The notes under the pieces: generated by a model
Told to the model about the DNA's origin: nothing
The model's database searches: none
The model's input: the letters and a program-made list of their open reading frames with translations, nothing else
Part shown: positions 371-24,269 of the stretch, in pieces
Numbering within the stretch: position 1 is the stretch's first letter
Layout of the letters: each line of letters starts with the position of its first letter
Translations under genes and position numbers: made by a program
Source: Eledone cirrhosa
Taxonomy: Eukaryota
Direction: 5' to 3'
NCBI GenBank assembly: GCA_964016885.1
Contig: OZ024746.1
Coordinates: forward strand, 41,912,001 to 41,976,000
DNA: 64,000 bases

Positions 371-1734
371 TAATAATAATCAAAATATACATGTTGAGCA
401 ACTAATATGCATTGTTGATTTCTGTGTTCTTCATAATTACTGCTGTTTATAAACCTAAAATACTGTTAGTTAAACATATTTATTTTAGAAAACCATTTTC
501 ATGTTTTCCTTATGATAATGTCCAACACAGCCTCTATGTAGTTGTCTGACCTTCTAGAAATAGTAGCTAAATTTTCCTCAAATAATTTTTAAAGATAATA
601 TGAAGAAGGACACATTGTAATCCTCAATATAGCTATATCTGAAAAATAACAACTCATATTATTTTGCTAAAAATAGCAGTCAAATTTCCCTCAAATCCTG
701 TCCTACTGTCATAAAAAAAGGAATGACACATTGAATAATGTAGATCTAGAAATGCTATGACTGAATAAAATATTTGATATAAGTTTTAAGTACACTGTAT
801 TCATATTTTTCAGTTTAATTACAATCACCCCCAGATAATATTGAATAAGGCAATTCATCACAATTCCCTAAATTATAGCTAAATGAAAAGGAATTGACAC
901 AGCAACATCTTTTCACATTTTTCCGAGAAGTTTTAAATTATTAAGAAAGCTATAAAAATAAATAGTTAAAAAACAACAAAAAAACAACAAAACGAATAAA
1001 GACAAATAAAATGATTATTTCAAAGGCATTTATTTAATTTAATAATAGCCTAAGGTATAGGTGATTTACATTTTCTGGGAAAATGATTGACAGAAGTATC
1101 AATAGGAAATTACGAAGCATTTCAGAACTACTTGTGTGCTAATGCTTAATAACGTGACATTGGTTCATTTTTAAATTGGTTTAATTTCTAATATTTTCAA
1201 AAATAATTCAGTTAAATGGTGAATTGGTAGAATTGTTAGTATTTGTCCAGGCTCTCATCCTTCAGAATTCAAATCCTGCTGCAGTCAACTTTGCTTTTCA
1301 TCCATTGATAGAATTGTTTGAAAAATGTGGTATATATTCCTGCTTCTTATATTCTGAATTCAAATCTAACTGGTGTCTACTTAGGTGGTAGACTTAATCT
1401 ATAAGGCTTTTTTGTTACTTAATCAAGAAAGAAATTACATGGTTCATTTCAGAACCTAGTGAAAGAGGAGAGAAGTGAGTATCCTCAAACAGAAAACCTG
1501 GCTGAAATGCTGACAATAGAGTGAACCAATACAGCAGAACAACCCATCTAACATATTAATAATTTTACCAGTCCACCACTCTAGACTGTTAATTTATTGA
1601 AGCAGAAAGGCAAAGGTAACCTCGGTAGGATTTGAACTCAGAACTCAAGAAGCTAGAATAAAAACTGCTATGTATTTTATCTAATGTTCTAATGCTTCTG
1701 CCAGTTTATTGCCTGTTTGTCTGATGATGTTTAA

Positions 1735-1955
1735 CCCTTTAGCATTTACATTACTCTATATTTACTATTGTATTTTCATGGTAAACACTTTATTTCACAT
1801 AATTATCTCATATAATAATGAATCTACAAGATTTTGATATTATTTATGTTGAGAACAATACCTTAACAAAAGTGTGAGTAGTTGGTTATGGCCAGTTTGA
1901 ACAGAAAAAGATGAAAGAATTCTGGCTGGATACAGCCAGTTTAAATTCTAAAGGG
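1735..1955. mobile_element. piggyBac-type MITE
   Basis: ttaa|CCCTTTAGCATTTA ... TAAATTCTAAAGGG|ttta terminal inverted repeats. A related inverted copy is at 28363-28578. Confidence 0.7.
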
Positions 1956-2426
1956 TTTACTTGAATATATGTAACTTAACATTAGTAGGATAAATGTAGG
2001 AAAGGAATTTGAAAGTGATGACATCCTAGGATGGATTGAGAATGGTGGTTAATATTGGAACTTGGCAGTAAGACAGAATAGAGTGTAGCCAAGTGAGGTT
2101 TAGTAGTGTTGGTATGTAACTAGCTACTTCAGAGGTTACTGTAGTAATTATAGAACTGTCAGAGAGAAGAGGCAGCACATGTGGGACCAGAAGTTGTAAT
2201 ATGTTGTTGAGTGTGTATTTGTGTGTTTAAGAATCAGTTAGATGGGATTCTATTAAATGTGGTTTAGACTACTTTTGTGCACTGTAGCAACAGTTGTACT
2301 GTCATATATATGGAAGTAGTACTCAATTGCAAATCTTACTTGAATTTTGTAAGGAGTAAGCTATTGATCAGAGTAGAAATATTCTCTGGACTTGAACCAG
2401 AAGGGTTTCAATTTTAGCTATGTTAT

Positions 2427-3000
2427 TTATGCATGTGAAGTCATCATCAACTTTGAAGATGTTAGTTGCAGATTTTCCATGGCTACAGAGAGTGAAACAT
2501 AAGTTGTATCTTTGATATATGCTAGGGATTTTGTTTTAATGCTGCTGAAATATACTAGATTATTGTTAAAAGAAGTGTTTTGGATGACACTCTTCATAGA
2601 AATGGGGAAATGTTTTATGTATCGCATGTTGGTGATGTTTGGAAATGTTTTATATATCGCATGTTGGTGATGTTTGGATGAATGAAGAGTGATGATTAAG
2701 TAACAACATTTGTTCCACATACAATCAAGTGCTTTGCTGGTGTTACAATGATATTGCTTTCGCCAAACTGGTGAGCATTGTTGAATGACATTAGAAAGCA
2801 TGTCTCCAATAGATTTAACAGAGCCATACTGATGGTCATTGAGTGGGGAAAGAAGCTGAAAATGTTGAAAATGTTGAACAAGTTGATTATTAACATTTTC
2901 TGCAGAGATGTTAGAAGTGAGAATGATAGATTGATAATTAACAGGGGTTGAGAGACTACCATTCTTTTGAAAGGGACACACTGTAGCATGTTGCTTGTAG
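2427..3000 (-). mobile_element. Degenerate CR1/L2/Jockey-group LINE reverse transcriptase remnant
   Basis: PFQKNGSLSTPVNYQSIILTSNIS resembles PxxKxGxxxxPxNYRPISLTS. DHQYG and SKALDCMW resemble the QYGF and SKAFDxVW motifs. Confidence 0.7.
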
Positions 3001-4149
3001 AAAAATTAAAGAGTATGGAGAGGACAGGGGATAACTCTAGAGCTCAATATTAGTGGCTGATGGAAAGGACATTGTGAAAGCTATTTTCTGTATTATATAT
3101 ACATTTTTGACACCTGGAAGCTTTTTCAGTGTTTCACCCCATATTTGTTTTGGTAGCATGAGAAAAAAGCACCCAGTCCACTGTGTAAAGTGAGTGTGTT
3201 GGTGACATGACAAAAAAAAAACACCTTGTTTACCCTGCTGGTGTCCTGCTGGTGACATGACATAAAGTGCCCAGTCCACCATGTAAAGTGATCATGCTGG
3301 TGATATGACAAAAAGCACCCAGTCCACCCTGTTGTGCTTGTGACATGATGAAAAAGTGCCCAGTCCACACTGTAATTTAGTTAGTGTTAGGAAGGGCATC
3401 CAGCTGTAGAAATCAAGTCAAAATACTGATCTGTATGAGCAAAAAGTCATCACTTGAATTGACTTATTTCATAGCATAAAAACCCATCTAACCCATGTAA
3501 GTGTAGAAAAATGGACATTAAATGATTTCTATTTACTATTAAATGAATTGTTAAACAGGTGCCAAGATAATTCTTTGTCAGTGAATTTGTCCTTGGTCAG
3601 TTCATCACCAATTCAATTCATGGTTGCTCAGTTTGTAGCCAGATCAATTAATGATCAGTATACAAGACCCAAAACTGCAACATAATTTCATTCTGTTATC
3701 CTGTTTACAGGTTTTATTGTTTATTTGGGTTTCAGTTCAAATTACACATGAAAAAAGGCAATTATTTCTTAACTTAAGAAGTGAAGTAGGTGCGGATTTG
3801 TTGCTTTGAATGGTTCTCTGAATGTTTTGAGCTGTTTTTGTTTAATACAGACTGCAAACAACGTTAGCATGTGGGTGATGTGTTAACCTGAAAAAAAAAT
3901 TCACCTGGCCATGAATTGACATATGACAAATTGATTATTGACAAACTAACTGACAAGAAATTGATCAGATGCTGTTACATACAACAGCTCTTATAGTTTC
4001 ACTAAAGTATTCTGAAATTACCAACTTGACTTATAATTAAATTAGTTATATAGCAAAGACAAATGTCTGCAAGAGCAATATTAACATCCTAGCAACAGTA
4101 TTCGATTACCTGTATCATTTCACATTTCTGTTAGAATTATGTTCTAACA

Positions 4150-4325
4150 GTATTAAAAACTAGACAAATATTCCAAAATATATTTTGATAGCATCAATTT
4201 CTATGCCAGAACATTCTAATAAACTACAACTGTCAATATTGAAAACCAATGGGTTTACTCTTAATAGAGAAAAATGTAAATTTTTATCAGAGAAATCGAT
4301 TATCTGGGTATCATATCTCCAGACA
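4150..4325 (+). mobile_element. Ty3/gypsy RT scrap
   Basis: Manual translation gives YFDSI (decayed YxDDI), then NGFTLNREKCKF and IDYLG after a frameshift. Confidence 0.5.
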
Positions 4326-4544
4326 GACATGTCATATTATCACACAAAATAAATAATGAATTAAAAAGAAGAGGATGATCCTCAAGATGACCTCATGACA
4401 GATTAACAGGCTCAGCAATTGTTTGAAAAAGCAGATGAAGAAGATTTTCATGATTTTAACTCACCTGAATAAATTGCTTAATGAACTGCATAATCTGTTC
4501 TTTTTGTGTTTTGTAATAAATAAATAAAATTTGACACTGAGTCA

Positions 4545-4870
4545 TTGTTTGTGAGACGTTAGAACATTGGACAGTATGATTAGTAAATTCATTCCAACTC
4601 TCTGCACATTGAGTTCAAATCCCACTCTGATCAACATTGCCTTTCATCCTTTTGAGGTAAATAAGAGTACTATGGCAGTACTGCGGTCGATTATACTATA
4701 TGTCTTTCTCATTTCCTCTTTATCATTCTCTCTCTCTCTTCTCTGGAAGAAATCAGTTGTGTTAAGACCTGGAGAGAGAATGAGCTCCTGAAGGTTTAAA
4801 AAATGCCCAAGGCATGCTGTATGTCACTATAGCAGCCCTACGACACCATCAAGAATTATAGGTCCATACA
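4545..4870 (+). mobile_element. tRNA-derived SINE with alternative 3' tail
   Basis: gagttcaaatccc B box and gcctttcatcc domain. The tail is similar to the reverse complement of 36030-36150 and to 40720-40830. Confidence 0.65.
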
Positions 4871-5537
4871 TACACATATAGTTTGTGACTTTGGACTTGT
4901 TTATATATTTGTCATGTGATTGCTGGGTTTTTGTCTTGAATTTGCTTATCACCTTTTTTTCTCTTCCCTATCTTTCCTTTCTCCCATTTTTCCTCTCTCT
5001 TATCTTTCCTCACTCTCCCTCTTCCTTTTGTTCTTTCTCTCTCTTCTGTCTTTCTCTCTTCCACCCTCTCTTCCTCTACAGAATGGTGGGAAAATATAGT
5101 TACTTGCAAAACAAAATGGGCGGATGTTTTTTTATATGCATACAGAAATATATATAATTGAATTTAAATATATTGTTTGCTTTGCACAGCAAAACAATTT
5201 TTACCATTACTTGTCTGGCAATGTAGTGAATATATATATGCTGTTTTGTGGGTGTTCATTCTCTAATTTCTGAGTACAATGCGAACACACACAGAGACAA
5301 TATTTCTTTATATATAATATATATAAATATTATCACCACCACAATTTTACATCAATTGTTCTATGCTTACATGGTTAGACATGATGATGATGATGCATAG
5401 TTTTGGCAAGATTTAACTGGCTGGGTGCCCTTCCTATCACCAACCACTTTACAGCATAGATTGGATACATAATTCGTACCACCAGCACTAGGGAAGTTGC
5501 TTTACAGGACTTAAGGGTCCTCTCTACCCTGTATCAG

Positions 5538-5714
5538 ATTTTATTCAGAGTGACTGCACTCCTAGACAGGTTGCCTACATTTCATCTTAGCGAGCCCATG
5601 TGTATCTCGTGTAGTCATATTTTATTCAGAGCCACTGCCTTCCTAGACAGGCTGCCTTATTCATGGCTTACAGAGCCCATGTCTGCCGCTGAGCAGTCTT
5701 ATTTCATTCAGAGT
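5538..5714. repeat. Degenerate ~80-bp tandem repeat, a little over 2 units
   Basis: tttattcagag...tcctagacagg.tgcct...gagcccatgt occurs twice, followed by a third attcagag. Confidence 0.6.
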
Positions 5715-6783
5715 TATTCCCTTCCTATATATATATATATATATATAAATCACCATCATAATCATCACCGTTTAACATCTGTTTTTCACACTAGTATGGG
5801 TTAGACGAGTTGTCCTATTGTGACTGTGTCTTGCTTTTACAGAACTGCTTCTGGCTTGGTTTCTATGGCTGTAAGCTCTTCCTAATGCCAACTACATTAC
5901 ACACACACACACACCACACCTTGCCATGCCACGCCATGCCATGCCACGCCACGCCACAGGGAGGTTATATACATAGTAAGTAGAGCACTCAATTCATAGG
6001 ACAAGTTTGGTATAAAGTTAGTTCCTTGAGTATGGTTTGCTAATTTGTTGTTTAACTAACTATATATATGCAGTATATATATAAGGGTTGGTATGACCAT
6101 GGGGTTCCGAAGTTCACTCTGCAACCACAAGGTATTCAGTTCCATCCTACACAAAAAACACCAAGTTGAATAATATACAACATACATCCAGAAAACCAAT
6201 ACTCACCATAAATAAATTCCACCACTAAATCTTCCACATTTTCTCCAACATAAAAACCAATAAAAATAAAATTAAAACCAAGCTACCAAAGACACAAAAT
6301 AAGCATATATCTAAAAAAAACCTAACACAATTTTACAACAACCACACAACACCTACACAGAAAACTAACACTCACCACAAACAAATTCTATTAAATCATC
6401 TTACATTTTACCACTATAACTATCAATGTCAATATATATATATATGTGTGTGTGTATGTAAATGTGTATAATCTATCTATCTATCTATATTTATTATCTT
6501 CATAATTTTAAAATAATCTTTATGATGGCATAAGTTGGACGGGTCACTACAGACCAAATTGATATTTATTCGGCACAAATGTCCTCCTAGAAGATGTTGG
6601 GTTATCAGCTTTCTCTCAAATACATTCCATTTTGGTATGGCATGGTGTTACAACTAGATGCCCTTTCTAATATCAACCACTTGCAGTATGTACTGGGTGC
6701 ATTTTATTGTGATACCAGTACTAGTGAGATTGTCTTGTCCTTCATATGAGTGAAGAGTCCTTTCTACCTTATTTAATGCCTGT

Positions 6784-6840
<57 letters not shown>

Positions 6841-7029
6841 GTGTGTGTATGTTTATGTTTAGTGGCTTGAAAAATAGAGATTGATAAAATAATTGCCAGA
6901 TTTGTCAAAATAAGTACTGAGGTCAATAGAATCAAATAAATCCATTCAAAGTGGTTTCTTTGTATTTTCTAATTACTGAAACCAGTGAAACAAATAAAAG
7001 CTTATCTATATACAAGAATACACACACAA

Positions 7030-7480
7030 CTGGGGAAAAGTACCTTTTGTAGTGATACACAATCCATGTAATCAAAGTATTTTTGAAGTAGCTAAAGCAA
7101 ACATAACTATTATCAAATAAAGTAATAAACTAAAAGATCTAATTACTGGTAGAAAGCTTATTTAAAGAAACCAACAAGCAAAAAATTTAAAACAATTGTT
7201 AACAAGGTCAAAGCTTCATCTAAACTACAACAACAATAATAACTTTACAGTATCTTATTGTTGTGGTACATGCAAATATATACATGCTGGCTGTTATATC
7301 AGCAATAAGATGCTGAAGAAAAATATTTGCAAATACAAATAAGAACTTCAAATGTAGAAATCTGATTTACTGTTTCAAATGTCTGAATTGTGAAGAAAGA
7401 TACATTGGTCAAACAGGAAACTTGTTATGAGAATGATTGCAAGTACAACCTGTGATAGTATGAGATTTACAAACTCATGG
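7030..7480 (+). mobile_element. Penelope-like element GIY-YIG endonuclease remnant (disrupted)
   Basis: Manual translation gives VPFVVIHNP, NLKQLLTR and NLIYCFKCLNCEERYIGQTG, followed by stop codons. Confidence 0.75.
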
Positions 7481-7559
7481 TTCACTCTATTGTTCATTAG
7501 CAGTTGTTGCAGGAAAGATTTAGATCTGTTCATCTGTTATGTGCGATGGAACAAATTGT

Positions 7560-9373
7560 AACAACAATGAATTTTATTCAATTACATGCACTTAATCATT
7601 ACCAGTTTTTAAGATTTTAGGAAGAAATAGAAGCAGAATATACTGAATTACTGTACTGCAAGTTTTAGGAAAAATTAGAAGCTGAATATAGCGATTTGCT
7701 GTATCACACTGCTGTAAGATGATTTATTAGCAGTGAAGTGATCTCAGAATTTTTGAATTTCAGATAGAGATTGACATTTTTCAAATGAGAAAAATCATGT
7801 TCTGCTTGGACTTGTAAACAATGAATATCTATGGAAATTGGCACTCTCAGCTAACATGATGATGCATCTTAATGAGTTCATTTTTAAAGAACAAGATGAT
7901 TCTCAGCTTATATGCAGTAAAAGCTTTCTAACATAAATTAACCTTTTTTCCCAGCTAATGATAAATAATCAATTTCCCTGCTGTGAAAAATACAACCGAG
8001 AAGTAAACTATCCCTTTCCTTTCAAATTCACCCAAGACATTCTATCTTGTTTGAAGCTACAGTTTCAACAGCATTTTTAAGGTCTCGATGAAAATGCAAA
8101 AGCATTATAAATCTTTCTAAATCTATTTGACTGCACTATCAAAGAATTTCCATCAAATTTGTAACTGGAAGATATTGATCTACAACCAAATGACATTAGA
8201 AAAAAGAAACCTTGAATGACTTATCTAAATGCTTCTATGATGAAAGATATACTTCATTAAAATCTTCTTTGCAGGGATAGACTTCAATATTTGGGATAAC
8301 CTGTTTATATAAAAAAGCATATTTTAAGAATATTTGTGCCAGGTAAAAGTACCTACCACTGATGTGCTCTTTCATGTGAGGCAACTGCAGGAAAGGTACC
8401 TAGCTAAAAGTAAACCCCTATACTTGGCATTTGTGGACCTGGGGAAAGCTTTTGACAGAACCCCCCCGCTGTCCCATTATCTGAAGGGCCTTGCTTGTCT
8501 CATAATGGGACAAACTGTCTAATTCATGTTAGCGTGGAAAAGGTGTGTTAAATGATGATCATGAAGTACATTTATAGGTCAGTGTTAACCGATCATCACT
8601 TCCAGTCAGTTTTTATGAGAGGAATTACAAAATTTGAACCAGAATTTGACAATATAACCCCACCCAATAAAAATAAAGAATTTCATTGTTTCCATTGATA
8701 GTTCACTATTTCACAATATATAGCATACAGCTTAGACTGCTCTTCATTTCTTACACTGCTGCATACATACACATAAATGCATTTAAAAAGTTGTTGCATG
8801 TTGGGACAATTTCGAATATTAATTGCAAATCATAGTGTTTTCTTTGAGGTTAAGCAAGCCTTTTATGCCAGGCTGTTAGGTTACCAAATCGCTATATAAA
8901 CCTTCATGGTATACCATTTTCCTGGAATTTTTGTCAATAATTATCCTGCCACTCACAAATATATTTTTACATGCATTGAAGCTATAAATTTATCCAAACT
9001 GATTCTTATATAGTATTCTGTGTTGAATTTCTGAGCCCCTGTGCTTTAGCAAAAGAAATATTTTCACTACAGTAATGAGATGATCTTGTGGTATTAAGGA
9101 AGGCTTCATCTCATATGTTTTTTGCAGGTGATATAGAATACCCCAAAGACCAGGCATTTATTAATGCTATAACATAATTTCATTACGTTAGTTCTTTATA
9201 TTCGTTATTCTTTGTTAAATGCTTATAATAAAAATCATTAAAATGATTAAATAAAACAAGCTGCTTTCAACTGCTTTGTATGATTAGGGTTTCATTTTTT
9301 ATTTGCCTTGGCCTACAAGACATCAAAACAATTTTCCAATTTGGCACACCTCTAAAGACGTTTGCCAACACTG
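7560..9373 (+). mobile_element. hAT (Charlie/Buster-like) transposase relic with 3' TIR
   Basis: EAEYSDLLYHTAVR* matches the LLYHTxVRW motif. Also HLNEF, LQFQQHF, LEDIDLQ and FEPEFD. It ends in gtttgccaacactg (9360-9373), the reverse complement of CAGTGTTGGCAAAC. An RTE fragment interrupts it. Confidence 0.7.
8336..8565 (+). mobile_element. RTE LINE fragment (RT piece plus 3' end) nested in the hAT relic
   Basis: TTDVLFHVRQLQERYLAKSKPLYLAFVDLGKAFDR, then an RTE-type 3' end with gatgat. Confidence 0.8.
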
Positions 9374-12213: not shown

Positions 12214-13452
12214 CTTGCATGGTTTAAATGGGTTGTGATATTGTGTGACAGATGAAATCAGGAGACTCTCACTCATACAGAACTGTTTCTGGCTTGGTTT
12301 CTTCTATGGTTGGATTCCCTTTCTAATGCCAAGCACATTCCAGTATGGGCAGGGTGATTTTTACCATGGCACTAAAGCGACAATCTGGCAAGGTAGACAG
12401 GGTTTTTTTGTTGTGTCACCAGCACAACCACCTTACAGGGTTGGCTAAGTGCTTTTTTGCTTTTTATCATGGTAGCAGCACTGTGAGAGAACTTGTATGC
12501 ATGGGTTGAATATATACATATATATATTATTAGTGCAGATTAAAGTTTAAGCAAAGAATTTCTACTTTCACCCAATTACAGGATCTTCTGAAACTGAGAA
12601 AAATCAATTTATAGATGCAGAAGTAAATATTTCAAAAAGCATTAAACCAAATGAAAACAGGAAGACATAACGTTGGTTCGTGAAGACATTCTCTGGTGAC
12701 GGACGAAAAAGATGCAAGGATAATTACGTCATTATGTATATATTAACACAGGGACTGATAACTTTGGGGTTGATGTCTGATTAACTTATAAGTCCACTCG
12801 GAAGGATATATATCTTGCAATTAAGGGAAGGTTATTCTGATATAAAGGGAATTGCCTTGGCTATTTCTGATATCCTCAATGTAAGCTGAATATCTTTATG
12901 TTCCTATGTTCCCTACTCTGCAACGTTTATTGATACCGGATTTCTTGCTGCAGCTTGTATTTAGATCATGCCATGAGGTCACAAGAGAGAGATCTATGAA
13001 GTGTCATGCAAAACTCTCTTGCACTCCTTTTTTGTACCTCCTCTTATTTTTCTTTTAAGCCCGGTAGAGATGGGAAGATAGCAGTAGGACAACTATGTCT
13101 ACTTTACCTTTTATCCTTTTGGAGTTGATAAAAGAAATACCAACCCAGCACTTGTGCAGCCCTCTCTTCTTCTAGTTATCACGTCATGGAAGTTTTGCTG
13201 TATCAAAGGAAGAAGGTGTGACAGGGTGCCTGCATTTCCTCATGATTGTATGGGTCCTTAAAAATCTTGGCAAAAGCATATTACATACAACCAAAGAACA
13301 CACAATGTGTTGTGGTTGGGTTGCCGTTTCATGCTACAACAACTTTTTACAAGGAGTCCCTGGGTCGATTTTTGATTTTTGATTTTTCTATTCTTTTCTC
13401 TGTTTTCCATGATAAGTTTGGGTTCAATGTAATCCTCTTATGTAATTCTGTC

Positions 13453-13533
13453 GAAGTTACCTGATGAGATCGTCCAGTCTTGCATAATAATTGGATGATG
13501 GAGCTGGACTATTGAAATATATATAGTGATTTC
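13453..13533 (+). ncRNA. Type I hammerhead ribozyme, intact core
   Basis: Stem I gaagttac/gtgatttc (8 bp including GU). CTGATGA at 13461. Stem II gat.gtccag/ctggac.att. GAAAT-ATAT-ATA, with predicted cleavage after 13525. Confidence 0.8.
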
Positions 13534-15279
13534 AAAGAATTAAAACTTTACAGGATATCTTCCAGTCTGGCTTTCTATTGTCGTTTTATAAATACACCAT
13601 CCATTTCAATGCCATCACCTTCCTCTCCAGCAGTGCAATATCTGTATATCAGCCCCAACCCCTACCAAAATGCCTCCTGAGATAGTTCACCCTGTAAAAG
13701 TGGTAGTGCTGGCATCTTGATAAAATGCTCCTAGTACATGGTGTAAAGTGGTTGGCATAAGGAAGGGCATCCAATCATAGAAACCATGCCAAAACAAAAT
13801 ATACATGCAGGGCCTCGTCACCTGACTAGGCAGGCCTTATCACATAACAGCCATCTAATCTATGAAAGCATGGAAAATAGATGTAAAATGATGACAATGA
13901 TGATATATATATAACTCATGCTAGTGGGGAATATGGATGTAAAATGGTGATGATGATGGTGTATACATACATACTTACATACATACATACATATGCACAT
14001 ACACATATACATAGGCAAACATTCAAAGAGACAGAGAGAGATGAGAGGGCTTAAGAGGTCTGATTATGAATGTGAAAAGTGAATGGACATTGAGAACTGA
14101 AAAATGAATAGTTATGTGTTAGTGAATAGGGATTAGAATAGAATCAAGTGTCAGAGGTTAGATCTAGAAGATATGTAAACAAGTTAGTTTATTCATAGAG
14201 GTTGCGATAAATGAAGAAAATTAACAAGGAAAGAAACAAAGGGTAAAAATGCCCTTTCAGATTCATAGAAGCATTACAAAAATAAAGGAATCTAATATTC
14301 TGAATGGTGATGTTTATAGGTTTCTATTACGTTTTATCTGCTTGTTCACACACAAAATATATTGTCCATCCACAGACAAAATCTAAACATAAACTATTTG
14401 TTTTCTGTCTGCAAGATGACTGACTGTGAATGACATCATTTTTAGACAGAAGTGTATATACTACACTATACTTTAAACAGGTCAAATACTACTAACATAT
14501 CCTAAGACCTTTTTGTGTGAAACTGTGTGTAAATAAGTTTAGAATACGTTACAATGTTTACTAATCAGTTTACATTCAGTTGATCTATTTGTAATTCATA
14601 GAAATATATAAAATTTTCTTCTGAAGATTCACATATATAGTCGTATATATACTTTAAATGAAGCATAATTCTTTAATACAAAACAAATCATGAAATAATA
14701 TCATTTTCTGGTGAATAGTGTGAATCAGTATGGATATTTTTCAAACTCTTTTTTTTTTCCAAATAAAGCAAAACAAAGGATCTTTGAAATGAGAAAGGTT
14801 TAAAGAAGTTAGTATATTTTATACACTCCAAAATAAAGTGGAAAAAGGAATTAGAATGATTTCATGTAAATATTATTGCGAAATAAATAGTTTTATGTAA
14901 AATATTTCCTATTTTGATACATTCAAAAATTCCTAAAATATAATCCTAGCATATGTTATTATTGGTAAGGAAGTTAAAACCTAAAAATACAGAATTGCAT
15001 TAATTTCAATAAAGAATTTTCTCTTATTTTTCATGCATACATACGTTGGATAGGACTTGGAAATTTAAAAAGGAAAGTTCAAAATATATGTTTGATACAT
15101 TTCTTAATGCCAATTGCTCAAAATGAAGATAAAATGAATTGTTAATTTTTATTTACATAGTCAGAGCCTGATTTGGTTTTTAAATAAGAGTAATTGTTCT
15201 CCTAGACAGAGCCAATCAAAGCTAACAAGCTCTTTCTACTTGTTTGTTTTATGTTGTTTTTTTACACACTATTGGATGG

Positions 15280-18683: not shown

Positions 18684-19182
18684 CAAAAGAGTCATTTCGA
18701 CAGCTATTTCTGGACGTTTCAGAAATAGATGTTGAAACGGCTTGAGCTCTGCCGTCGGGGCTCCGACTCTTTTCCTATTTCCCACTCTACTACCCAAAGT
18801 ATCGAGTACTCTGGTGCGTTATGGTTCACCTGGTTCCTTACCACACTTACTTCGTGATATATATATAGGGATGTAAAAGGTAAACAAAAATAACAAAGCC
18901 ATCAAAATGGTTTAAGTTTAATCTTTGGTCTCCCCCATTCTATAATATCTATACCTACTTTCCTCAAATGTGGAATACAAAGTTAAATAATGCTCTTACT
19001 AGTCTTAACTTATAAGATCTTGTATATATATATATTGTAGAGGCAGAATCCTGACTGAACCATATGGTCAGGCTTCTACCTTTTTAGTATACTCACTATA
19101 TCTCATCATGCATCAATTAGTACCCTGATTTGTGGTATTTCTGATCTTTGCACCACAATCACTCCTTATATATACTATATAT

Positions 19183-20103
19183 CATCATCATCATCATCAT
19201 CATTTAACGTCTATCTTCCATGCTAGCATGGGTTTAGATGGGAATTGTCCCACGTGAGGCAAGATTGGTTGTCTTGCTCATATAGGACTGTCTGGCGGGT
19301 TTTCTATGGCTGGATGCCCTTCCTAACACCAACCACGTTTACAGTGTGGACTGGGAGGTTTTTACCGTGTTACCTACACAACCACATTACAGCATGGACT
19401 GTGTGTTTTTTTTTGTCGTGACACCTACACGACTTCATCCTTTAGGACTGGATGTTGTGGTACCAACAAAACTTTACAGAGAAAGGGGTGGTGTAGATGA
19501 GGGTGGGGTAGTGGAATGGGGGTGTATTTTTGGTTAGGAGGTGCCTACTGAGTGTAGGTTTCGCTTTGTACTTAGGCAAGGCGGGTTTTCTGTATTACTG
19601 CGTAGCGCCAAAGATCTCGGTCCAGTGATATTGTCTTGGAGAGGTGTAAGTGTGTAAGGTTGGAATTTATCAATTCGTCCCAGGTTTTTCTGGGTCTGCC
19701 TACTCCGTAGCTTCCATCTATTTTGATCGCCCTGCACTTTTTTATACAGCTGTCGTCTTTCATGCGCATCACGTGACCATACCAACGTAGTCTTCTCTCA
19801 AGTAAACAGCATCTGATCTCTCTTATTCCTAATTTCTCACTTAGCTTTGCCTTTCACGTATATTACTATTACACATCCAATGGAGCATGCAAACTTCGTT
19901 CCTCTCCAGTCTGCGTATATCCTCTGCACACAATGTCCAGGTCTCAATGCCATGTAACATCGCTGATCGTATGCAGGCATCATACAGTCTGCCTTTCATT
20001 TTTAGAGAGAAACCTTTAGTGGCCAATAGTGGTATAAGCTCTCTGAACGTTTTCCATCCCGTTCTGACTCTAGCTACTGTACTTTCAGAACACCCTCCAC
20101 CAC
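19183..20103 (-). mobile_element. 5'-truncated RTE LINE with (CAT)n tail, in TA tract
   Basis: KGRLYDACIRSAMLHGIETW and GRPRKTW. The 3' UTR is shared with other copies. Confidence 0.92.
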
Positions 20104-20711: not shown

Positions 20712-20724
20712 ATATATATATATA

Positions 20725-20925
20725 ATCATCGTTTAACGTCTATCTTCCATGCTAGCATGGGTTTAGATGAGAATTGTCCCACTTGAGGCAAGATTGGTCG
20801 AGTGACCGTGTCTCGCTCATATAGGACTGCCTGGCAGGTTTTCTACGGCTGGATACCCTTTTTAACACCAACCACTTTACAGCGCGGACTGTGTGTTTTT
20901 TGTCGTGACACCTACATGACCTCAT
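20725..20925 (-). mobile_element. RTE 3' UTR fragment
   Basis: Near-identical to 19200-19440. Confidence 0.85.
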
Positions 20926-21013
20926 TTATATATAATTTGTGGTAAGGTTGCTGGATGCCTCCATAGGCGGTATGCCAGTTGAGCACTCTATGCTCCTTCG
21001 GAGCAGAGTATAA

Positions 21014-21300
21014 TAATATGGAAAACGAAGAATCAGTGATGCATCGAAGCACAATTTATTAACGTATTGTCTTGAAATCTTGACCAATTGATGGGCCGCA
21101 CAAACAGGATGATGGCAGATGAAAGAAATTCAAAGGGTTGGAGGGCAACAGACAGAGGATTTGCTTTGAAGTCGCTAGATGTATCTGAGGAACTTGCGAA
21201 TCCAGAGTCAGGTTTGATCCACAAATAGATCGCACCTCCAGTGTTCGCCAGAGAAACAATTGTCTTTCAATGCATCACTGATTCTTCGTTTTCCATATTA
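21014..21300 (+). mobile_element. Penelope-type non-coding module with inverted arm and hammerhead
   Basis: 21014-21056 is the inverse of 21258-21300. It ends in TA and contains the hammerhead at 21178-21276. Confidence 0.7.
21178..21276 (+). ncRNA. Type I hammerhead with extended stem II
   Basis: gatgtat-CTGAGGA-a-cttgcgaa...ttcgccag-a-GAAAC-AATT-GTC-tttca-atgcatc. The proximal part of stem I is unpaired, probably through a deletion. Confidence 0.6.
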
Positions 21301-21306
21301 TATATA

Positions 21307-21946
21307 TCATCATCATCATCATCAGCGTTTAATGTCCGTGTTCCACGCTTGCATGGGTTTGGACGGGGCTTTTCCCACTTGAGGCAAGAGTGATTGTCTT
21401 GCTCGCATAGGACTGTCTGGCGGGTTTTCTACAGCTGGATGCCCTTCCTAACACCAACCACATTTACAGTGTGGGGCTGGGAGGTTTTTACCGTGTTGCC
21501 TACACGGCCACATTACAGCATGGAGTGTCTGGCGGGTTTTCTACAGCTGGATGCCCTTCCTAACACCAACCACATTTACAGTGTGGGGCTGGGAGGTTTA
21601 TACCGTGTTGCCTACATGGCCACATTACAGCGTGGACTGTGTGTTTTTTGTCGTGACACCTACACGATCTCCTTTGTTTCGGCCTGGATGTTGTGGCACC
21701 AACATAACTTTACATTGAAAGGGGCGGTGTGGATGGGGTGGGGGTGGTGGGGCGGGGGGGGTGTTTTGTTAGAGATGCCTACTGACTGTAGTAGGTTTTA
21801 CTTTGTATTTAGGTAAGGTGGGTCTTCTCTATTACTGAGTACCGCCAAAGGTCTCGGTCCAGTGACATTGTCTTCGAGAGGTGTAAGCGTGTGAGGTCGG
21901 AATTTATCATGCCGTCCGAGGTTTTTCTGGGTCTGCCTACTCCGTG
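21307..21946 (-). mobile_element. RTE 3' end with (CAT)n tail and an internal ~113-bp UTR duplication
   Basis: Homologous to 19183-19710. tgtctggcgggtttttctacagctggatgcc occurs twice. Confidence 0.88.
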
Positions 21947-21963
21947 TATATATATATATATAT

Positions 21964-22592
21964 GTATGTTTTGAAACAGTGAGCGAGTTTGAAATTAGAA
22001 ATATAAGCTTTCACCGTATTTTTGACTAAAGAAATGTTTAGCCTGATAGTGGGGGTTTAGAACCCTCAGAGAAATGGAAAAAGATGAGTATTGACGTACA
22101 TGAGAGTCGAACACACATCTTTGGTTATCCATACCACTGTGCTACCATGACCCCAACACGTCACCCATCTCCTTCCATTCAAATTAGAAGCAATTGGTGT
22201 AATGGTAGCACAGTGGTCTGGATAACCAAATATGTGGGTTTGACTCCCATGTACGTCAATACTCATCTTTTTCCATTTCTCTGAGGGTTCTAAACCCCAC
22301 TATCAGGCTAAAAATTTCTTTAGTCAAAAATATGGTGACAGCTTATATTTCTAATTTCAAACTCGCGCACTGTTTCAAAACATACTTACTTGTCATTTAC
22401 TTGCTAAGAATGTAGCTTCTAATTTGAATGGAAGGAGATGGGTGATGTGTTAGTGTAATGGTAGCAAAGAGGTGGGTTTGACTCCCATGTATATCAATAG
22501 TCATCTTTTTCCATTTCTCTGAGGGTTCTAAACCCCACTATCAGGCTAAAAATTTCTTTAGTCAAAAATACGGTGAAAGCTTATATTTCTAA
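21964..22592. mobile_element. TA-flanked inverted-plus-tandem element built from a ~256-bp unit containing a tRNA-like cloverleaf
   Basis: 21964-22191 is a minus-strand copy of the unit. 22194-22592 is about 1.6 plus-strand units in tandem. Confidence 0.85.
22092..22162 (-). tRNA. tRNA-like cloverleaf (pseudo-tRNA, anticodon GGA); partial copies at 22194-22258 (+) and 22444-22496 (+)
   Basis: Three-copy consensus GACGTGT TG GTGT AATGGTA GCAC A GTGGT CTGGATA ACCAA AGAT GTGGG TTCGACT CCCAT GTACGTC A is 71 nt with canonical arm spacing and A and B boxes. Confidence 0.7.
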
Positions 22593-22607
22593 TATATATA
22601 TATATAT

Positions 22608-22742
22608 AAAATTAATCAGGAACAAAGTCTCAAGGCTGCATATGTACAAACTTCATTCACATATGACAATTGTTTTGGTATCAAAATAATTCTCATATGT
22701 GAATAGTTTACACATGTTGTAAACTTGTTTCTGCTTAATTTT
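22608..22742. repeat. Foldback hairpin next to TA tract
   Basis: attcacatatga.aattgttttg(gtat)caaaataatt.tcatatgtgaat core, with outer aaaattaa.cag.aacaa / ttgtttctgcttaatttt. Confidence 0.7.
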
Positions 22743-24024
22743 ATTTATGCTTTGCATGTGATAGTTGCCCTTGGCCCTTAGCCACATGGAAGTATATAAT
22801 CTACATGTGATGTACCTTTGGAACTGTATTGAGTAATCTGACTGGTGAAGCACCTGTAGCTATTATTATGCCCTATATATATATATATATATGAGAGAGA
22901 GAGGGCGATGCATGTGTGTCTGTGTATAATAAAAAGTATTTATTTAAATAATTCCTTGATTACAACATTCTATATGAAGAATGACTATAGAATTACTGTT
23001 TCATGACTCAAATAACATATATATTTTGGGGATCAATGAAGCAAATAACTTTTACTTCTAAGAAGTGAATGTAACCCATGCTAGCGTGGAAAATGGACAT
23101 TAAACGAAGATGATGATGATGATGATGGCGATGATGAAATTGCAGTTACTGCTGCATATGGTATATGGGATCTTGAGAAGTTCATGAATATAACATTACA
23201 TGATCCTGCCATATTCTTATTTGATTGGGAATTGACTACATTACTCTCACAAATTCAGTGGCATGGGCTACAAAGGACATGAACACTGCCTTCTTTCTTG
23301 ACTAAATTATAAAATATAAGACAGTATCCATGAAGAGATCCTCATATATGTAACTAGATGCCCAATTCATTTAGTAATAATCACCAATGAGGACTTTATA
23401 GTCTTACATAAAACACAAAAATCATTGACACCACGATCATGTAGTTGCTCTCTTGCTGTCTCACACCTATACTGCTGTAGGTACATATCAAATCATAACA
23501 TGTGAATTGGAAAAGCTAATACTTTTCTTTGAAAACTTTTGCAAATCGATAAAGATTTATAATTATGTCTCCTTAACATTCAATGACTAAACAAAATTAG
23601 CAAAATATAGCTCTAGGAATGATTGATATCAGATCTTTGACATAAAGAGATTTGGCTTGTGTCTGTTGCCACAAATTCTTAAGATGGATTGTAGTGCCTC
23701 TGTAAACACTGTCTTTTCATACTAATTAAAGTTATTAGAATTTGAAGAATACCTCAGATATATATCACCCAGTTGTCTCCCATATATCTCCCATATGTCT
23801 TCCAGGTATTAAAAAAAAATAATCTCTTTACTATAGAAGAATACTTAAGACTCACAACAACCTCAACAAGTTCTAAAAATTGGTCAGATAGAGGTAGGAT
23901 CTGAAGAACTCAACAGTTGTGAAATATGATACAACTGAATCTGAGAGTACACCTTTTAGCAACGAGTCAGCACTGACAATATGTATATGTATGAAATATT
24001 TAGCCAACATATATTTAATATGTG

Positions 24025-24269
24025 CATGGTGCCACGGCAAAAAGGCACCCAGCCCACACTGTAAAGTGGACGTGTAGGCGCCATGGAAAAAAAGCACCCA
24101 GCACTCACTGTAAATGAGGTTGGTGTTAGGAAGGGCATCCAGCTGTAGAAATCAAGCCAGAATCAGTTCCCATATGAGCAAGTCAGCCGACCGGACACTG
24201 CCCACAACAGGACAACCCATCTAACCCATGCTAGTGTGGAAGAACGGACGTAAAATGGTGATGATGATG
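24025..24269 (+). mobile_element. RTE 3' UTR with (GAT)n tail
   Basis: Near-identical to 62040-62267. Confidence 0.85.

Follow-up and report, generated by a model that had tools for sequence, protein, structure and literature searches.

The window analysed here, 64,000 nucleotides of the 3.0-Gb animal assembly of Eledone cirrhosa (G000:C6:41912001-41976000), holds at 21961-22593 a single two-armed insertion of a non-coding unit, which measures 256-292 bp across its family and is present here as a decayed copy. Both arms read outward in the sense of a tRNA look-alike, and runs of TA, recognisable in the sequence as the target microsatellite, flank the insertion on the left (21946-21963) and on the right (22592-22608). 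The left arm (minus strand, 21961/64-22191) amounts to about 0.9 of a unit and the right arm (plus strand, 22194-22593) to 1.55 units. They meet head to head at 22192-22193, the left arm starting at -29 and the right arm at +7 relative to the 5' end of the tRNA. The first-pass annotation had described a unit of about 256 bp in inverted and tandem copies between TA tracts, and both the layout and the period are confirmed, 256 bp being the B-box spacing of 238 plus an 18-nt deletion. The three copies agree with one another at 181/192, 167/179 and 122/129 aligned bases. The insertion is located at the end of one copy of an abundant SINE-like repeat that starts at (ATC)n, and this repeat is found in the window at 19170-19700, 20720-20930, 21295-21945, 23073-23126 and 24040-24260.

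The left arm terminates at outer site 2 and carries a tail of the type seen in Penelope-like elements (PLEs), running from outer site 1 to outer site 2 (21961-21993, minus strand); it is about 30-33 nt long in this copy, against typically about 37-40 nt in lineage A. Site 1 lies inside the loop of a 3' hairpin, P4 (21976-22017, minus strand, strands 22011-22017 and 21976-21982), which is predicted to be the element at which reverse transcription starts, a role taken from PMC11167929. Next to it on the same strand are the hairpins P3 (22024-22043) and P2 (22053-22065), whose stems are kept and whose loops vary across lineages, and a domain (22074-22178) in which a 16-bp helix, P1 (22163-22178 with 22074-22089, including a T5 run at 22078-22082), is capped by the cloverleaf. 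The tRNA look-alike itself (22092-22162, minus strand) is full length at 71 nt, and its equivalent of A58 is at 22107. In the right arm, the inner partial unit A (22194-22414, plus strand) contains the cloverleaf from +7, P2-P4, the tail and a linker, with an A box at 22195-22206, a B box at 22237-22247, the A58 equivalent at 22243 and T5 at 22268-22272. At its T-stem/acceptor junction is a run of CATG/GTAC/ACGT palindromes (22248-22256, +61 to +69), which is the hot spot for arm ends in the family and which the insertion in the window read through. The outer unit B (22415-22593, plus strand), with an 18-nt deletion in its cloverleaf, terminates at outer site 1 (TTTCTAAT, 22586-22593).

The Rfam tRNA model scores 33.2 bits at 22195-22250 in unit A and 25.8 bits, under the cut-off of 29, at 22092-22162 in the left arm. 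Default ARAGORN found no tRNA in the window; with -ps90 it reports the one in the left arm, and it identifies a tRNA in 30/30 family loci against 0/20 PLE control loci. Of the 71-nt cloverleaf with A and B boxes proposed at the outset, one copy scores above the Rfam cut-off, but no copy in the window is intact: the inverted, full-length copy has damaged boxes, unit A is without the 5' acceptor strand and unit B without 18 nt of the anticodon arm. The proposed extension of the acceptor stem by a 16-bp helix that includes T5 is confirmed. The stem-plus-cloverleaf domain folds with z -5.1 in the window copy (0/200 shuffles as good) and with -3.2, -1.5 and -2.7 in three further copies, and in lineage D, P1 is two bases longer on each strand, a paired 2+2 insertion. 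The 72-nt cloverleaf alone is as stable as its shuffles (z +0.2), and the stability of the whole unit is likewise unremarkable (z -0.95 to +0.02, three copies).

Covariation in the arms had been named as a check, and it is found in part. Across 29 copies of lineages A-C, pairing holds in 95% of cells, and the single two-sided change at the level of lineages is T-A to C-G in P4. With lineage D included, 12 pairs differ between lineages, and by a hand tally 10/12 remain paired (null 0.29, p 1.6e-4), or 10/14 if the two register breaks of lineage B are counted (p 1.3e-3); cloverleaf-fitting variants from the related species are unphased and were not used. Changes between lineages thus mostly keep pairs, as does the insertion in P1, but in the lineage comparison two-sided changes are confined to regions outside the cloverleaf, and the seven acceptor pairs of lineage B can be retained only with a bulge.

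The anticodon GGA reported earlier is indeed among those of the lineages, but it is not conserved (GGA, CGA and GGC), and the anticodon loop is the most variable part of the domain. Its forms CTGGATA, CGCGATA and CCGGCAA fall short of the stable U33-bearing loop of a functional tRNA gene. The best host match is tRNA-Gln (45/72 identity), with which the D-arm agrees. Given that the stems are kept across lineages and the anticodon loop drifts, the conclusion is that this tRNA-Gln-like cloverleaf is not a decoding tRNA. As to its origin, matches in phages were weak only (E 0.05 or worse), and the D-arm motif in bacteria belongs mostly to tRNA-Gln (51/64 ARAGORN calls in 63 loci) with a best identity of 44/72, so that no bacterial origin is claimed.

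The unit is present in the genome in thousands of copies, not in the single copy that would have spoken against the first reading, and these form six lineages: A1, A2 and A3 (period 256-259), B (290), C (269) and D (about 292; 1986 candidates). A DNA search of the genome gave 3169 candidates, 40 of them scored, with 88 matches, and exact motif searches gave 996, 2423 and 4315 hits, against 0 for reversed controls. The copies diverge by 3-6% from the column yardsticks of their lineages. A sequence run of a related species contains 631 related contigs, and the family therefore predates that species split. A reading of copies 2.4 kb or 9 kb apart as the LTRs of a coding element was rejected, as these are segmental duplications or passengers.

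No conserved CUGANGA-type block is found on either strand in six natural tandem stretches, and the permuted forms of Eckert et al. (PMC10085705), as given in the available text, are thereby also excluded. The sole sense GAAA of the unit is GATA in lineage C and GTAA in lineage D, and Rfam finds no ribozyme in the unit. A hammerhead within the unit, in normal or scrambled order, was thus rejected for want of a conserved core block, and the original statement that the unit has no intact CUGANGA/GAAA core is correct. The hammerhead modules said to lie nearby are less clear, because two cores can be read by eye (21186-21270 and 13461-13525) but their folds are unremarkable. One is in a short TA-flanked element at 21009-21306 with 48-bp inverted arms, and consists of CTGAGGA at 21186, GAAAC, a palindromic loop and a GTC site (fold z 0.0); the other, at 13452-13535 (CTGATGA ... 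GAAA), has stems I and II by eye (z -1.4).

The layout was scored in 147 insertions, with duplicate loci dropped: 101/147 have their arms head-to-head, 46 consist of a single arm, and tail-to-tail insertions are absent. The outer ends lie at two fixed sites, separated by 37-60 nt and with site 1 in the P4 loop, and the resulting tail is about 37-40 nt in lineage A, 60 in B, 37 in C and 50 in D. Among the two-armed insertions, 51 use both sites, one for each outer end; both ends are at site 1 in 3 insertions and at site 2 in 2, and in the remaining 45 at least one end is unclassified. A dinucleotide run adjoins 224/248 outer arm ends; no empty-site allele was recovered. Craig et al. (PMC8557442) describe the same layout for PLEs, with a 30-40-bp tail and (TA)n targets, and Frangieh et al. 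(PMC11167929) report that the tail is the stretch between two internal reverse transcriptase (RT) start sites at a stem-loop. Copy number, two-armed layout, fixed tail and microsatellite targets together make dependence on a PLE a well-supported reading, and the unit is highly likely to be a non-autonomous element mobilised by a PLE enzyme.

TA flanks and inverted arms are also a feature of Tc1/mariner MITEs, and the family has 447 near-identical palindromic centres and one 25-unit array, as might be expected of a DNA-level repeat (a MITE or satellite). This origin is largely refuted and barely credible, and so are those as a SINE of the ordinary, LINE-dependent kind and as a tRNA pseudogene duplicated locally. 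The termini are offset by the fixed tail and are not in-register inverted repeats, lengths and inner junctions vary, and the units are circularly permuted and tandem. Nor do copies start at the tRNA (3/144 arms start at -5 to +5, against 2.5 expected); arms continue through it into the previous unit, and the whole tRNA is retained in just 20/87 of the insertions picked by their tail, as described below. Local duplication is excluded by the thousands of dispersed copies. The tRNA is thus internal, as the first-pass annotation had it, and copies of SINE type, with a start at the tRNA head and a SINE tail, did not occur.

Returning to mobilisation by a PLE, the two arms of an insertion tend to resemble each other. 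Private variants are common to opposite arms in 17% of cases, from 40 pairs and with four loci omitted for their duplications, while the figure for 1624 pairs from different loci is 2.6%; this fits one source per insertion, and conversion between arms could add to it. Arms longer than one unit make up 67/130 in loci picked by the tRNA and 12/144 in those picked by the tail. The shared variants and the long arms together imply that the template is a multimer or circle, or that the enzyme jumps. One insertion is of interest here for its size: at L292 (G000:C1:131457500-131467400, 1416-8321) the right arm of a two-armed insertion has grown to 25 units, which are 16% apart on average and include later duplicate pairs, and it looks like a satellite being born from one insertion. 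Because of these later duplicates, the 25-unit arm is no proof of rolling-circle copying.

The genome contains at least 150 GIY-YIG matches, and RT and GIY-YIG are both present in 3/5 long ORFs scanned. Several autonomous PLE copies end in the same manner, inverted and tailed, and their tails measure about 31-62 nt as read by eye. A partner sharing sequence with the unit was found at 0/40 GIY-YIG loci (BLAST; 40 of 10,596 candidates), a covariance model run over 52 sources gave a best E of 0.002, in an AT-rich stretch, and the DNA upstream of 30 tail-picked loci has no ORF of 200 aa. The idea of a non-autonomous PLE partner holds for the architecture of the insertions, but a PLE with the same termini did not emerge from these searches. 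It is worth adding that in one autonomous PLE family (L072, L076 and L078) the tail measures 62 nt and one end lies in CTTTCTAA before (TA)n, and that the tail of lineage B is about 60 nt long, with site 1 in TTTCTAAT; this family is a possible partner of lineage B, the two having no longer sequence match. An abundant PLE family (L047-L066) has, by eye, an apparent U3-A8 variant hammerhead (TTGATAA ... GAAACCGGTA) 3' of its GIY-YIG domain, about 190 nt before the end of the element.

The inner ends of the arms provide clues as to what happens while the unit is copied. Loci picked by their tRNA gave a flat distribution of inner ends around the unit, but picking on the tRNA excludes short arms, and this result is superseded by a sample picked by the tail, comprising 89 of the first 100 listed tail-motif matches on contig C1 and yielding 87 usable insertions with 144 arms. 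In that sample 60 inner ends fall at +57 to +70, where 8.7 are expected, and four arms begin exactly at A58. The junctions are CATG fold-backs, joins to TA/TG runs and other joins; in the genome, 447 loci carry an exact 30-bp fold-back, of either A or B type.

This pattern bears on the suggestion that the cloverleaf is a host-nuclease site at which transcripts are cut into monomers. In its fuller form, the cloverleaf takes the place of the hammerhead: cleavage by RNase P, or within the anticodon loop, would release unit-length RNA from read-through transcripts, and after circularisation by ligation this RNA would be copied round and round by the PLE enzyme. Such a scheme would account for cloverleaf stems that are kept while the anticodon loop drifts, for a unit of retrozyme size that has no ribozyme and for the arms longer than one unit, and the T5-T6 tracts, at which Pol III would terminate, favour read-through from Pol II as the source. 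However, there is no accumulation of ends at the tRNA 5' end, where RNase P would cut (3 at -5 to +5, against 2.5 expected), or after the discriminator, the position for RNase Z (4 against 5.1), so that linear cut monomers are not the main templates. A search for tRNA-excised copies with joined flanks gave 0 hits, the acceptor is bulged in lineage B and a T-loop pair is broken in D, the whole unit is not rod-like, and the sole arm of 25 units shows later DNA-level duplications. The nuclease site as first suggested thus finds no support in the positions of the ends. Cutting followed by ligation into circles would leave no end signature, but we regard the replacement of the hammerhead by the cloverleaf as improbable.

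The T-loop is TTCGACT on a 5-bp stem in lineages A, B and C, and TTCGTGT, without A58, in lineage D, whose T-stem and palindromes are identical to those of the other three. For lineage D, 50 of 160 matches were taken and one duplicate was dropped, giving 49 tail-picked loci, 46 of them usable. Among arms reaching +70, 59/89 stop in lineages A/B/C and 3/48 in D (Fisher p 1e-12). As the arms of one insertion are not independent, counts per insertion are safer, and these give a stop in 40/60 against 3/36. The stop is present in lineages A, B and C separately (12/20 arms in B). A cruder recount, in which decayed or deleted T-arms are also scored as stops, gives 42/58 against 13/33 insertions (p 0.003), and in it A/B/C have 19 fold-backs and D, with 33 insertions, has 0. 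Lineage D differs further in having G for C59, a 50-nt tail, which may mean a different partner enzyme, and a slightly greater age.

In A, B and C the T-arm has the substrate motif of the methyltransferase TRMT6/61A (GUUCRA in a 7-nt hairpin loop), and the available text of 10.1101/202747 reports that this enzyme methylates GUUCRA hairpins with 7-nt loops outside tRNAs too. m1A58 is a strong stop for retroviral RT (PMC8599865), and truncation at m1A is described as imprecise, spreading to neighbouring bases (10.1101/202747). We therefore propose, from the genomic copies, that the cloverleaf or the T-arm was very probably folded in the RNA template as it was copied, and that m1A58 is probably the block to the borrowed reverse transcriptase. 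A stall of RT at m1A58 would further identify the tRNA strand as the one that is copied. There is no A-to-G strand bias that would indicate a footprint of A-to-I editing (A>G 52/5620, T>C 77/6677, p 0.25).

The hot spot could also arise in a PLE-dependent element without any methyl group, from the fold of an unmodified T-loop or elbow with its T54-A58 pair, from a partner enzyme that is less processive in A/B/C than in D, or from transcribed palindromic copies without a tRNA that are cut at the apex and copied again. The peak is at +61/62, on the palindrome run of +61 to +69 and five bases 3' of the expected m1A58 stop at +57; read-through copies show no excess of misincorporation at A58 (2/111 against 50/1740); and tail lengths vary by lineage, all of which this explanation would accommodate. 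Yet lineage B, with a tail unlike those of A and C, stops at the same place, and lineage D, with the same palindromes and T-stem, forms none of the fold-backs. Moreover, arms without any fold-back also end there (9/30 single-arm insertions, at +60 to +68), and four arms start at A58 itself. On balance a hot spot of non-methyl origin is unlikely.

Taken as a whole, the best explanation, to which we assign a probability of roughly 0.6, would be a protein-free repeat copied by a PLE, in which a tRNA look-alike methylated at A58 truncates most copies beside the T-loop. As its copies show, the unit spreads in the form of arms joined head to head, whose outer ends are fixed at two sites. By analogy with the published PLE mechanism, the PLE protein would nick (TA)n DNA and cDNA would start at two sites around P4, one per arm. 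The two arms tend to have private variants in common, and some arms exceed one unit. In lineages with A58 the copying stops at +55 to +70 in two of three passes, whereas in the lineage without A58 it does not. m1A58, written by TRMT6/61A, would stall the RT near +57, and the cDNA end would be trimmed to a CATG palindrome or to TA/TG microhomology and then joined.

Truncation in two of three passes is costly to the element, which implies that A58 is probably kept for a benefit; the simplest candidate is an internal Pol III promoter, of the kind proposed for Sm-alpha (PMC6765202, PMC2770079). The weakest step of the scheme is that the costly tRNA would be retained as an internal Pol III promoter, through its A and B boxes, with T5 being read through. 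This promoter had been put forward in the first-pass annotation and is plausible, but a T5 tract (T6 in lineage D) is positioned 10 nt after the tRNA, and lineage D has multiplied in spite of its damaged B box and T6 tracts; for these reasons we put the odds that it is the benefit a little below even. More tentative still is a wider picture of ribozyme-free Penelope parasites living off the host tRNA pathway, whose RNA would be transcribed, folded, methylated like a tRNA and perhaps cut and circularised by tRNA enzymes. The m1A58 brake would then leave most copies without a promoter, and the RNA modification would be recorded in hundreds of genomic fossils, one lineage having escaped by the loss of A58.

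In its way of working the unit is comparable to non-LTR retrozymes and non-autonomous Chlamys elements, but it is neither a retrozyme, as it has no hammerhead, nor a LINE-type SINE, and from the copies we would class it as a non-autonomous PLE-dependent element. It has relatives in layout or content, all compared here as far as the available parts of the sources describe them. Sm-alpha and Sj-alpha of Schistosoma (PMC6765202, PMC2770079) are also short non-coding units, often tandem, with a part derived from tRNA-Gln, and for them Pol III transcription has been proposed, with an upstream unit driving the next. However, Sm-alpha has an active hammerhead and the Eledone unit none, and the latter differs also in having its tRNA on a 16-18-bp stem and in inserting with the two arms and tail of PLEs. 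Metazoan non-LTR retrozymes (PMC7229834; bioRxiv 10.64898/2026.07.22.740005) are tandem non-coding units of 170-400 nt, comparable to the periods of 256-292 found here, for which mobilisation by PLEs has been proposed; they are defined by a type I hammerhead per unit and by circular RNA, whereas the Eledone unit is without a ribozyme, is not rod-like and is known from genomic DNA.

In insertion pattern the unit resembles the EN+ PLEs (Naiad, Neptune and Penelope/Poseidon), which insert at (TA)n as partial tandems accompanied by an inverted, 5'-truncated copy and have a tail of 30-40 bp at one of their ends (PMC8557442), and non-autonomous Chlamys elements such as MRC1, which are multicopy and head-to-tail with two RT start sites at a stem-loop (PMC8557442, PMC11167929). 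Non-autonomous Chlamys elements generally resemble the 3' end of their partner, and no such partner was found for the Eledone unit; the available descriptions of EN+ PLEs and Chlamys have neither an internal tRNA nor a fixed truncation site, both of which the Eledone unit has. The m1A58 plus-strand strong stop of retroviral RT (PMC8599865) resembles the proposed stop in that a methylated T-loop adenosine halts RT at a fixed place. The retroviral stop is on a primer tRNA and serves replication, while the one in Eledone would be internal to the template and truncating, and is read from genomic copies. The literature searched, which lay mostly outside subscription papers and did not extend to the repeat databases Dfam and Repbase, describes no tRNA-bearing PLE-dependent short element and no truncation linked to m1A. 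The repeat annotation of Octopus includes many unclassified SINEs (PMC13282606), and its supplements or repeat libraries may include the family.

If the explanation is true, the places at which retroposed copies break off reveal an RNA modification, for which a natural mutant lineage serves as the control, and a mobile element is held in check by a host tRNA enzyme, with no defence system devoted to the task. In vitro, copying by a PLE RT is independent of hammerhead cleavage (PMC11167929, available text), and the genomic data presented here support that result, that PLE copying has no hammerhead requirement. The unit also offers PLE biochemistry a natural template of 257 nt, with two mapped start sites and a strong stop.

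Two other groups of tRNA-related loci were noted in the genome. There is a cluster of at least 29 tRNA-Gln genes and pseudogenes in repeated blocks (L201-L229, G000:C1:168.21-168.28 Mb). In addition, a single long interspersed repeat (L033, L035-L043; for example G000:C5:99222941-99223013) accounts for 10 of the 16 listed Rfam tRNA hits. It opens with a small hairpin at a TA run and contains a high-scoring tRNA with the variable anticodons GGC, GAC, AGC, GGT and GTC; its flanks seem to pair beneath the acceptor stem, and its layout is not PLE-like.
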